Of a stretch of DNA of 64,000 bases, positions 40,217-42,515 are shown piece after piece. The notes under the pieces are model-generated. The model made no database searches. It was not told where the DNA came from and worked only from the letters and a program-made list of their open reading frames with translations. The stretch lies in the sequence record PQ341120.1; one strand, written 5' to 3'. The position numbers and the translations under genes are program-made. This stretch comes from Escherichia phage EAWsc9. Numbering within the stretch: the stretch's first letter is position 1; the number at the start of each line of letters is the position of its first letter.

Positions 40217-40566
40217 TTGGTGAGCTCCTGGAAGTCCTGGACAAACTTATCAAAAGACTGATTAATCTGTTTTTCAACTAATTTAGGCTTCGCTGCCACA
40301 ACCTTAGTACGTTTTGCATCTGCGCGGAGTTTATCATTTTCCTTCTGCAGAAGTTCAACATATTCCTGGCGCTCCTGGTCAAGGAGATTAATTTGATTAA
40401 TCTGGTCTTTTACTGATTGCAGATTTTTCGCGTTATCTTCTGCAACTTTGGTGACCGCAGCCACCTCTGTCTTGAGATTATCTACTTTTGCTTTTAGATA
40501 GAAACCACTACCAGCAGTTACTACCAGGGCGAGCATAAGCCCTGCAGTGAGATTACTTATTTGCAT
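40213..40566 (-). CDS. pseT.3: Inner-membrane spanin (i-spanin), 117 aa
   Basis: N-terminal transmembrane helix (LTAGLMLALVVTAGSGFYL) followed by a coiled-coil-like periplasmic domain; ATGA coupling to the o-spanin. Confidence 0.8.
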   Translation of the reverse strand: MQISNLTAGLMLALVVTAGSGFYLKAKVDNLKTEVAAVTKVAEDNAKNLQSVKDQINQINLLDQERQEYVELLQKENDKLRADAKRTKVVAAKPKLVEKQINQSFDKFVQDFQELTK

Positions 40567-41060
40567 AACTTGATGATTACCTCAACAATATCATCCTGGG
40601 ATAAACCATTCAGGAGGATGTGATTTGTACTGTCAGATGCTGAAATGCGGAACTGATTACCAACTTCATCCGCCATATCATCCTGGGTTAACACTGGATG
40701 TTTAATTCCCAGGCGGTGTTGAAGTGTCAGGGGTTCAACCACAACATAACAAACACATCCATTGATATGTACATTAGGTTGGGTCTGGTTAATGAACACT
40801 TCTGCATCATATTTAACCAAATGGTTCTTTAAGAATTCAACCATTTCAGGAACAGATTCATGCAGTGCTTCTTTCCGCTCTTCTGATTTTTTATCGCGAT
40901 ATTCTTTTTGTTTCGCCTTCAACTTTTTGTTAGAGGCGAGTTTTTTCCGCAGGTCAGTCATAAGACCAATTTTCTTGGTCCCTTTATAGACATAAATTCC
41001 GTCATGACGGTCACCATATTCATTGACAATCATTTCATTTGAAATCAGTTGCATATCCAT
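40557..41060 (-). CDS. alc: Alc, inhibitor of host transcription on cytosine DNA, about 168 aa
   Basis: Internal ATG with GAGGA RBS gives the T4 Alc size (167 aa); synteny between rnlA and the spanins. Confidence 0.85.
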   Translation of the reverse strand: MDMQLISNEMIVNEYGDRHDGIYVYKGTKKIGLMTDLRKKLASNKKLKAKQKEYRDKKSEERKEALHESVPEMVEFLKNHLVKYDAEVFINQTQPNVHINGCVCYVVVEPLTLQHRLGIKHPVLTQDDMADEVGNQFRISASDSTNHILLNGLSQDDIVEVIIKLCK

Positions 41061-41073
41061 AATATTTTCCTCA

Positions 41074-41307
41074 TTAGTAGCGGTTATAACCCCGGGGACC
41101 AAAAGAGTTGGCACCCAGGCGCTCATCTTTCTTTTTGGCTCTTGCTCTAAACCCAGAATCACCTGTTTGAGCTTTCAGTTCTTTTAACAATTTGGCCTTT
41201 AGGTCAGTAATGAAACCAATCCGGCGGTCTCCCTTATAGACATAGATTCCATCATTTCTGTCACCATATGCCTGTGTAACTCTGTCATTTGTAATTAAGT
41301 TTAACAT
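41074..41307 (-). CDS. Hypothetical small protein, about 77 aa, paralog of the Alc N-terminal domain with a basic tail
   Basis: AYGDRNDGIYVYKGDRRIGFITDLKAKL aligns with Alc NEYGDRHDGIYVYKGTKKIGLMTDLRKKL; first ATG of the track ORF is inside the promoter -10. Confidence 0.5.
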   Translation of the reverse strand: MLNLITNDRVTQAYGDRNDGIYVYKGDRRIGFITDLKAKLLKELKAQTGDSGFRARAKKKDERLGANSFGPRGYNRY

Positions 41308-41330
41308 GTTTTGGTCCGCATCAGTAGTTG

Positions 41331-41372
41331 ATGGAACCATTATGTATAGAAAGAAGGGGCTTGTACACCCCT
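41331..41372 (-). promoter_or_regulatory. Early promoter upstream of the Alc-N paralog, overlapping the rnlA terminator hairpin
   Basis: GTGTACAAG -35-like element within the hairpin and CATAATG -10. Confidence 0.35.
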
Positions 41373-41378
41373 TTTTTA
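41352..41378 (-). terminator. Hairpin after rnlA
   Basis: GGGGTGTACAAGCCCC followed by a T-rich tract. Confidence 0.5.
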
Positions 41379-42515
41379 TTATTCAGGAAGGATTACTTCC
41401 GCTTGGTAGTCCGACGGAATGTAAAGTTTATGATTTTTAAGGAAAACCTTATTGATTTGAGCAATCGTTTGTTCAGTTTCCTGTGGGCGTTGATAGGTGT
41501 TCATTAATACGGAGAACAATCCCGGGTATGGTTTACACAACTCTTGGCCTTTAATCGCAAACTCACGACGGTCTTTTCCTGCTAACTGTTTTTGTGCATC
41601 AAGCAACAATCCCAGTGTATTGGACAGATAATCCAGATGCGTTGCAGTAAAGGCAGTAACTTTTTCACGAGCATAAGTATCGCCAGTAAACATGGCAATA
41701 ACATCATCTGCACCGCCAGCAACAACAACTTCAAACAGTCGCTCATTATTATTAATGGAGTCTTTAGTATGATGCAGAGCACAATACCATTCTGTTTTCA
41801 TCTTGAACTTCTGACCGTTAGCCATCTCATAGACGAAGCCTTCAATCTCTTTCATACCACGAACATTCTCAATGGTTGCCGGGTCATATGCTTCAACCAG
41901 GAAAGGACGGAGTGCAGCATCTTTGAACAGTTCCTGATAAGGAACATATTCACCAGTTTCATTATGGCGAACGTTCAGCAAAATCAGGTCACGTTCCTGG
42001 TAAGGCAAAACAATGCGGTTGGTCGGCGCAACATATTCCATGTTGCATGTATAACCAGCTTCAGTGATTTCAGTCACACGAGCCCTGAATGCACTGCGAT
42101 GTTCTTGTTTAAACACCTGCAAGGATTCAGCTGCTTGGGAGCTTTTGATTGACCCCTTTGATTTAAAGGCGATATTAGTCTGGTCCATATAAGTAGAAAC
42201 CAAGCTACCATCAGCTTTTGCAGTAACCAGGACAACCTCATCAAGGTTAAGGTCCATGGTCATTGGATTCTCACCCAGATTAAAGAATTTTTCCATAGGG
42301 CGAGCAGCAATGCGAACTGGACCATTGTCATCCATTTCAAACATAATGCCACGGCACTCCAGCGCATCATCAAGGAGCCAATCACTATAGGAAGCATAGT
42401 TATAGCTAAAGATGCGGAACTTAGTTTCAAATGGAGAAACAAAATCCGTATAGAAAAACTTACCTTTATCAGATTCGGCGCAAAGCTTCATTAAGTTATC
42501 ATATAATTCAATCAT
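41379..42515 (-). CDS. rnlA: RNA ligase 1, 378 aa
   Basis: FRIFSYNYASYSDWLL.DALECRGIMFEMD as in T4 Rnl1; AAGGTGA RBS; ATGA overlap with denA. Confidence 0.95.
   Translation of the reverse strand: MIELYDNLMKLCAESDKGKFFYTDFVSPFETKFRIFSYNYASYSDWLLDDALECRGIMFEMDDNGPVRIAARPMEKFFNLGENPMTMDLNLDEVVLVTAKADGSLVSTYMDQTNIAFKSKGSIKSSQAAESLQVFKQEHRSAFRARVTEITEAGYTCNMEYVAPTNRIVLPYQERDLILLNVRHNETGEYVPYQELFKDAALRPFLVEAYDPATIENVRGMKEIEGFVYEMANGQKFKMKTEWYCALHHTKDSINNNERLFEVVVAGGADDVIAMFTGDTYAREKVTAFTATHLDYLSNTLGLLLDAQKQLAGKDRREFAIKGQELCKPYPGLFSVLMNTYQRPQETEQTIAQINKVFLKNHKLYIPSDYQAEVILPE

Follow-up and report, generated by a model that had tools for sequence, protein, structure and literature searches.

Alc acts on the elongating RNA polymerase of E. 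coli, where it terminates transcription on dC-DNA and not on modified DNA, and the paf mutations that block its action affect residues R368 and P372 of rpoB (PMC2988021, PMC2939025). According to a review of 2010, the mechanism of Alc was not known (PMC2988021). Phages of the Gaprivervirus group have been reported to retain alc, denA, denB and dCTPase although dCMP hydroxymethylase, the product of gene 42, is missing from them, and an unknown DNA modification has been suggested for them (PMC12115623, PMC8056088). In the annotation of Shigella phage SP18, a pair of genes is named alca and alcb. The gene alcb has been on record there since 2010 and is described as "similar to N-terminal region of bacteriophage JS98 Alc"; its counterpart in phage VR7 is VR7ORF243c. 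Public records of AlcB go no further than noting that it resembles the N-terminal part of Alc and carrying the transferred name "inhibitor of host transcription". In the literature searched for alcb, VR7 or a duplication of Alc, no paper discussing this gene was found. The existence of alcb and its resemblance to the Alc N terminus are thus already on record, and the present analysis adds only evidence that selection acts on the gene, a tail motif, sister lineages and a model of origin.

The alcb locus and its likeness to the N terminus of Alc

A stretch of 64,000 nucleotides from Escherichia phage EAWsc9 (sequence record PQ341120.1), hereafter called the window, was analysed. On its minus strand the genes nrdB, denA, rnlA, an ORF of 77 aa, full-length alc, pseT.3 and pseT.2 follow each other in this order, and the features discussed below are collected in Table 1. 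A first-pass annotation had singled out the 77-aa ORF as a stand-alone paralog of the Alc N terminus with a diverging tail. The coordinates, peptide blocks and nucleotide strings that it quoted are all present in the window, both nucleotide strings being real, though the second comprises 22 nt and the first 21 nt. Its remark that T4 has no gene at this place was borne out as well, as T4-type genomes run from rnlA directly into alc.

Table 1. Coordinates of the features of the alcb locus (positions of the window)
Feature	Position	Strand	Basis
alcb coding sequence, 77 aa plus TAA stop	41074..41307	minus	ORF list, sequence, full-length match to phrog_17715
alc (alca), 167 aa, host-transcription terminator, paralog partner of alcb	40557..41060	minus	Pfam ALC, AF2, SP18 annotation
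rnlA (RNA ligase 1), upstream neighbour	41379..42515	minus	ORF; annotation of orthologous loci
Alc-type N-module of AlcB (residues 1-47): short helix, beta-hairpin, helix start	41167..41307	minus	BLASTP, Pfam ALC, AF2
AlcB tail (residues 48-77): SGF, basic stretch, C-terminal motif RLGANSFGPRGYNRY (motif 41077-41121)	41077..41166	minus	Orthologs, sister lineages
Putative sigma-70 / T4-early-type promoter TGTACA-17-CATAAT upstream of alcb	41339..41367	minus	Consensus scan
Hairpin of terminator type behind rnlA; overlaps the -35 element	41354..41373	minus	Scan; consensus match only
alcb ribosome-binding site, GCGGA	41315..41319	minus	Intergenic alignment; GAGGA in 12/13 orthologs
alcb stop (TAA, 41074-41076) beside alc ribosome-binding site GAGGA (41068-41072)	41061..41076	minus	Sequence

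The 77-aa protein was matched by phrog_17715 from end to end (residues 1-77 on profile positions 1-77, E 1.1e-53, 180 bits), and it is 95-99% identical to its orthologs in the databases. The 90% cluster to which AlcB belongs holds 38 distinct sequences, nearly all of 77 aa, and its listed members by themselves account for occurrences on >150 contigs. When phage genomes were searched with the 1-kb region around the gene, matches covering at least 80% of the query were obtained in 33 records, mostly at 92-99% identity (at least 95% in 20 of the 33), and alcb was present in every one of them. The matching records that were opened carry either a Gaprivervirus classification or none; among them are SP18, VR7, VR20, VR25, VR26, DK-13, MN01 and others.

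BLASTP aligned the small protein with the adjacent Alc with 31 identities in 64 positions and 69% positives (E 4e-17). The Pfam family ALC (PF17527), which has a gathering cutoff of 25 bits, recognized AlcB with 40.4 bits (E 3e-10) over profile positions 3-62 of 177, and phrog_1253 did so over positions 3-63 of 169 (E 8e-13). The neighbouring full-length Alc matched the Pfam profile end to end (164.9 bits over positions 1-166). By these sequence scores the similarity between AlcB and Alc is far above chance, and the paralogy proposed in the first-pass annotation is upheld. The genuine homology comprises approximately residues 1-45; BLAST extends to about residue 62 only through the Lys/Glu-rich composition that both proteins have in common. 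A resemblance limited to just a few residues, the objection raised beforehand, was ruled out by the same alignment. All residues that are invariant in the Alc family (I, G, D-G-I, G, D-L) are kept in the N-module of AlcB. At the DNA level alcb and alc are 62% identical over 120 nt and only 50% identical at third codon positions, indicating that the duplication is old.

The AF2 model of Alc (pLDDT 92) consists of an N-terminal mini-domain, a charged helix (residues 34-80) and a C-terminal alpha/beta domain (residues 87-166). For AlcB, a helix (residues 7-14), two beta-strands (22-25 and 28-32) and a further helix starting at residue 33 were predicted, with a pLDDT of about 90 over residues 11-40. 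The mini-domain predicted for AlcB is the same as that of Alc. AlcB has only this mini-domain and the start of the helix, the confidence of which drops after about residue 50; no C domain is present, and the tail is predicted to be disordered. The complete architecture of Alc (mini-domain, helix of about 47 residues and C domain in about 165 aa) is therefore not found in the 77 aa of AlcB. Termination of transcription by AlcB in the manner of Alc is improbable because the C-terminal domain and most of the helix are missing. A sequence search against solved structures gave no match for Alc and none for a 28-aa version of the tail.

The AlcB tail, expression signals and selection

The C terminus of the window protein, RLGANSFGPRGYNRY, fits the pattern R[LH]G[AR]NSFGP..N[KR][FY], a feature defined in this analysis. 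The motif is common to the proteins of the window and of two further lineages described below (P0043 from the metagenomic contig L014, and L020/L021), and it is absent from Alc. Between NSFGP and the C-terminal N[KR][FY], the spacing is two or three residues across the lineages. The six-frame translation of the window contains the motif once, and the tail matched no known motif. The first-pass annotation had spoken of a short basic tail; the divergence from Alc was confirmed, and the tail proved to be a motif conserved across lineages, not junk.

Several possible sources of the tail were examined. A frameshifted continuation of Alc was rejected, as blastx in all frames with the 3' part of alcb returned only N-terminally extended misannotations of the same locus. 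Derivation from a duplicated 3' end of rnlA was not supported by local alignments of two tail variants with four RnlA C termini (p 0.03-0.76, 2000 shuffles each), in which the sole "hit" was a match of five residues, GLNKF/GINKF. In sum, the tail resembled neither the C terminus of RnlA nor Alc in any frame. Ribosomal frameshifting by -1 at the AAA-AAG run in the tail was also discarded: translation in the -1 frame would meet stop codons immediately, and the frame of alc is +1.

The window and 12 Gaprivervirus loci were combined into a set of orthologs (n = 13), from which alcb, alca, rnlA, pseT.3 and denA were extracted. In all 13, alcb is intact and encodes 77 aa. Mean pairwise dN/dS values (Nei-Gojobori, 13 loci) were 0.114 for alcb, 0.111 for alca, 0.077 for rnlA, 0.098 for pseT.3 and 0.041 for denA. 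Codons 50-77 of alcb contain 10 variable nucleotides, all 10 of them synonymous, so that not one amino acid changes in this part of the protein; by a rough estimate, with about 24% synonymous sites in this stretch, the neutral chance of such an outcome is ~1e-6. Taken together, the intact ORFs, the low dN/dS and the purely synonymous changes in the tail point to selection on the protein in the alcb frame, tail included. Thus, alcb is with high probability a functional protein-coding gene derived from alc. The sequence comparisons indicate that purifying selection has maintained it across a divergence in which nearly every second residue of RnlA was replaced.

Within alc itself, codons ~27-46 (window 40923-40982) form a mosaic patch in which 20 of 60 nt differ between two alleles, one found in the window and also in DK-13, MN01, TH41 and VR20, the other in SP18 and VR7. 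The flanks of the patch differ by 0-5 nt per 30, and dS is ~1.1 in codons 1-47 vs 0.13 elsewhere. From the sequences, a short segment seems to have been replaced by recombination, up to the boundary of the N-module. Neither allele is nearer to alcb. A recent gene conversion between alcb and alca was considered and rejected for this reason, and also because the two genes are only 62% identical and share identical runs of only 11-16 nt.

The putative promoter upstream of alcb is invariant in sequence in the 13 orthologs. Promoters occupy the equivalent position in the Tequatrovirus G28 (GTTTACA-17-TATAAT) and, as TTTACA types, in L014 and L020. The terminator-like hairpin has a 7-bp stem with 4 GC pairs and is followed by CTTTCT. 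A GAGGA element lies 8 nt ahead of the ATG of the 77-aa frame in 12 of 13 orthologs, and the window alone has GCGGA. This single A-to-C change at window position 41318 weakens the ribosome-binding site of alcb and, judged from the sequence, may lower the translation of AlcB in this particular phage.

In the window, 13 nt separate the alcb stop from the ATG of alc, the range across Gaprivervirus orthologs being 10-13 nt. The stop abuts or overlaps the ribosome-binding site of alc in all three lineages that carry alcb: in the VR7 type a TGA lies inside it, and the arrangement recurs in L014 and L020. The spacer is so short that it leaves no room for a separate alc promoter. Probably, alcb and alc are carried on one early transcript from the putative promoter ahead of alcb and are co-expressed with coupled translation.

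For the start codons, conservation supports the 77-aa AlcB and the 167-aa Alc. An 88-aa alcb with a start at 41340, as annotated in DK-13 and RZ, was rejected, as its ATG falls inside the -10 element and, in 5 of 13 orthologs, an in-frame TAA separates it from the ATG of the 77-aa version. Public start calls for alc are inconsistent, some adding an extension of 21-22 residues that overlaps alcb (188-189 aa, e.g. in pEC-M719-6WT.2 and DCP80); the regions concerned by the differing start calls of the two genes are 41061-41162 and 41308-41340 in the window and the loci L012 and L013. Between two such "long Alc" proteins of 188-189 aa, the extension is conserved to ~67% and the AlcB tail encoded there to 100%. 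Because the extension is so much less conserved than the alcb frame, the 188-189-aa annotations are deduced to be wrong. In the record of DCP80 (L013, PQ671644.1), positions ~2200-2530 hold a pseT.3 ortholog that is broken by ambiguous bases and followed by unrelated sequence; the genome measures just 141 kb, and the record is apparently incomplete or misassembled.

Distribution and origin of alcb

When 50,697 phage records were searched with AlcB by tblastn, the only genomes with a further Alc-like place were those of Gaprivervirus and that of one Tequatrovirus, G28. From 1.84 billion representative proteins, 32 family members were retrieved by an exhaustive profile search. The short ones were P0002, which represents AlcB itself, P0038, which is gp179 of G28, P0043 with 78 aa and P0054 with 61 aa, the latter being the N-terminal piece of the split alc of L015 described below. 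P0043 was found by this exhaustive search; when AlcB was used in a word-index protein search, nothing outside its own cluster came up. Scans of IMG/VR and of JGI metagenomes gave nothing beyond loci of the Gaprivervirus type. Two proteins, P0055 (L016 198-725) and P0056, combine an Alc-like N terminus and long helix with a low-complexity C terminus. They were not accepted as a new architecture, as they have their N terminus in common with the full-length P0030 (166 aa); from their sequences, they are probably frameshifted copies.

The metagenomic contig with P0043 (L014) carries rnlA, alcb and a 167-aa alc together. A third lineage with the same order rnlA-alcb-alc (L020/L021) was obtained by looking up the nearest relatives of Alc. 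Among the three lineages with alcb, the identity amounts to 46-62% for AlcB, 75-77% for Alca and 53-62% for RnlA. Compared with the window, RnlA of L014 and of L020/L021 is 53-55% identical, and AlcB has a length of 77-78 aa in these lineages. The N-module, a GGF or SGF element, the basic stretch and the C-terminal motif are common to all three. The position between rnlA and a full alc, with the stop beside the ribosome-binding site of alc, was found in the window, in the 12 Gaprivervirus loci, in L014 and in L020/L021. Where the identity of Alc falls to 61-64%, as in the P0007 and P0008 lineages, alc comes immediately after rnlA and alcb is absent. The N-modules of the AlcB lineages are 45% identical to each other, no closer than they are to full-length Alc proteins; for this reason, the case for a single origin of alcb rests on the tail motif and on synteny.

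A possible route to such a gene is provided by Tequatrovirus G28 (NC_054916.1, L005 5580-5991). In this record, the 3' end of rnlA, the early promoter and nt 1-144 of alc are tandemly repeated with 100% identity. The repeat yields gp179, a 63-aa N-terminal fragment of Alc located shortly before an intact alc, and gp180, a 33-aa C-terminal fragment of RnlA. Coming from a single record, it could be either a fresh duplication or an assembly artefact. The first-pass annotation had mentioned an origin of the 77-aa ORF by partial duplication, and the independent, perfectly identical repeat at the same place shows how this can come about.

We propose that alcb arose in an ancestor that Gaprivervirus has in common with two or more uncultured sister lineages. 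Through a tandem duplication across the rnlA-alc junction, the first ~45 codons of alc would have come to stand a second time downstream of the original early promoter. The extra copy would then have been retained, would have gained a new C-terminal tail bearing the motif and would thereafter have come under purifying selection. A duplication of the G28 type accounts for the location of alcb behind the ancestral promoter. The repeated rnlA fragment and the second promoter are gone in the alcb clade.

A different arrangement was seen on the metagenomic contig SRR10769897_2867 (L015 2894-3431), where alc is split after an A-rich run into ORFs of 61 aa and 111 aa in different frames. The gene may truly be split, or the frameshift may stem from sequencing. 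The point of the split is close to the end of the AlcB homology.

The DNA chemistry of the phages concerned was approached through the interval between uvsX and imm. In SP18 (NC_014595.1, L018 4131-4788), this is the interval that was examined, and it holds two hypothetical ORFs only; in T4 (L017 9401-11220), beta-gt and gene 42, encoding dCMP hydroxymethylase, are located here. The interval in SP18 is in line with the published reports that gene 42 is missing from Gaprivervirus. Unusual cytosine chemistry and the gain of alcb are thus found in the same clade, but as this is effectively one clade the coincidence amounts to an anecdote.

Possible functions and relation to known systems

In the predicted structure of Alc, the N-terminal mini-domain is set apart from the C domain by the charged helix of ~47 residues and may therefore be an autonomous docking head. 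AlcB would consist of this docking head alone plus a new tail and, judged from the architecture, would bind the same partner as the N-module of Alc. The most plausible candidate partners are E. coli RNA polymerase in the vicinity of beta R368/P372 and Alc itself. Through such binding AlcB might tune or assist the Alc-dependent shutoff of host transcription, with the tail adding a new contact. As a combined statement, we slightly favour the reading that alcb is a functional small early gene acting via the partner of the Alc N-module. For a role of AlcB in the Alc/RNA polymerase pathway as such, we see about even chances.

AlcB might also counteract Alc, a special case of this reading that had been put forward in the first-pass annotation. 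As a dominant-negative competitor, it would fill the docking site of the N-module without supplying a C domain and would limit, delay or spatially restrict Alc; shielding of the phage's own transcription could be one use of such a protein. The retention of all invariant N-module residues in a protein that is missing the C domain fits this picture, and a brake on Alc would be sensible in a clade that is reported to be without dCMP hydroxymethylase yet has alc (PMC12115623, PMC8056088), SP18 being devoid of both gene 42 and beta-gt between uvsX and imm. However, an antagonist made from the same mRNA, and probably by coupled translation, provides a fixed stoichiometry rather than control, and pure competition does not need a strictly conserved novel tail motif. 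Moreover, purifying selection on Alc is strong in the phages concerned, and the link to the loss of gene 42 rests on one clade. The fixed co-expression and the conserved tail count mildly against pure competition, and we regard the competitor as unlikely. An activity unrelated to Alc, in which the N-module serves as a scaffold and the tail as a short linear motif for some other protein or nucleic acid, appears a little less probable again. The tail is the most constrained part of the protein within Gaprivervirus, codons 50-77 being free of amino acid changes; its motif is common to the lineages, and its predicted disorder is usual for short linear motifs. Against this, the tail matches no known motif or solved structure, the core of the Alc-type N-module is kept in all three lineages, and in all three alcb is linked to alc physically and probably also translationally.

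That alcb is a non-functional remnant of a duplication, or an upstream ORF whose translation alone aids the expression of alc, is very improbable. Partial duplications do happen at the rnlA-alc junction, as in G28, and the alcb stop overlaps the ribosome-binding site of alc. But the remnant that the first-pass annotation had offered as an option is not compatible with an ORF intact in 13 of 13 orthologs, a dN/dS of 0.11 and a tail that is invariant as protein despite 10 synonymous changes and shows no non-synonymous one; in addition, a length of 77-78 aa is kept where RnlA is only 53-55% identical to that of the window, and where alcb is missing, alc is expressed from a like junction all the same. 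We give hardly any credence to the idea that alcb represents the beginning of an alc gene that is frameshifted or split, or of a longer, recoded Alc. A split into 61 aa and 111 aa occurs in L015, the alc frame has no stop in the 34 codons that precede its ATG, where it overlaps alcb, and some records annotate an Alc of 188-189 aa. The frameshift, which the first-pass annotation had named as a reason to abandon its reading, is nevertheless ruled out by a complete 167-aa alc with its own N-module downstream and by the absence of Alc-like sequence from the other frames of alcb. Selection acts in the alcb frame, the extension in the alc frame being conserved to ~67% vs 100% for the tail; the frame of alc is +1, and a search for a conserved site of shifting gave none.

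Returning to AlcB as a functional gene that acts through the partner of the Alc N-module, the maintenance by selection of a natural protein made of this module alone hints that the module is an autonomous functional unit, and AlcB may serve as a reagent for finding its binding partner. A more specific version, in which AlcB is a clade-specific microprotein partner that retunes or restrains Alc and lets these phages keep a terminator directed against cytosine DNA together with a different DNA chemistry, is a long shot. If it were true that AlcB restrains Alc, the N-module of Alc would be a docking element and would provide a handle on the mechanism of Alc. The restriction of alcb to Gaprivervirus, a clade of uncertain DNA modification, offers a concrete link that can be tested. 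With regard to its origin, alcb is an example of a phage accessory gene born by partial tandem duplication, of which G28 would represent the fresh and Gaprivervirus the domesticated state.

Truncated paralogs that act as regulators ("microproteins") comprise the Id proteins and plant LITTLE ZIPPER, and small phage proteins that bind RNA polymerase comprise T4 AsiA, RpbA and T7 Gp2. AlcB has only the concept in common with them, namely the retention of a single interaction module from a bigger factor, or an action on host RNA polymerase by a small phage protein made early. It has no sequence or fold relationship to microproteins, AsiA, RpbA or T7 Gp2, and a functional resemblance is speculative. 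The split alc of L015 is like AlcB in presenting the Alc N-module as a separate ORF that ends near residue 60; unlike alcb, its two ORFs jointly make up one Alc, and no extra full-length copy is present. Nearer to AlcB is gp179 of Tequatrovirus vB_EcoM-G28, which is likewise a stand-alone N-terminal fragment of Alc between rnlA and alc. It differs from AlcB in being recent and confined to one genome, in its random out-of-frame tail and in showing no sign of selection, and it is a model of the origin rather than an ortholog. The catalogued AlcB family (SP18 "alcb", VR7ORF243c, phrog_17715) is the same protein as the copy in the window without any substantive difference. With T4 Alc (PF17527, phrog_1253), AlcB has the first ~45 residues in common, including the predicted helix and beta-hairpin and the invariant residues, and both genes occupy the same genomic neighbourhood with the same kind of early promoter upstream. 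Unlike Alc, AlcB is without most of the long helix and the entire C-terminal alpha/beta domain (Alc residues ~63-167), and it carries an unrelated conserved motif at its C terminus.
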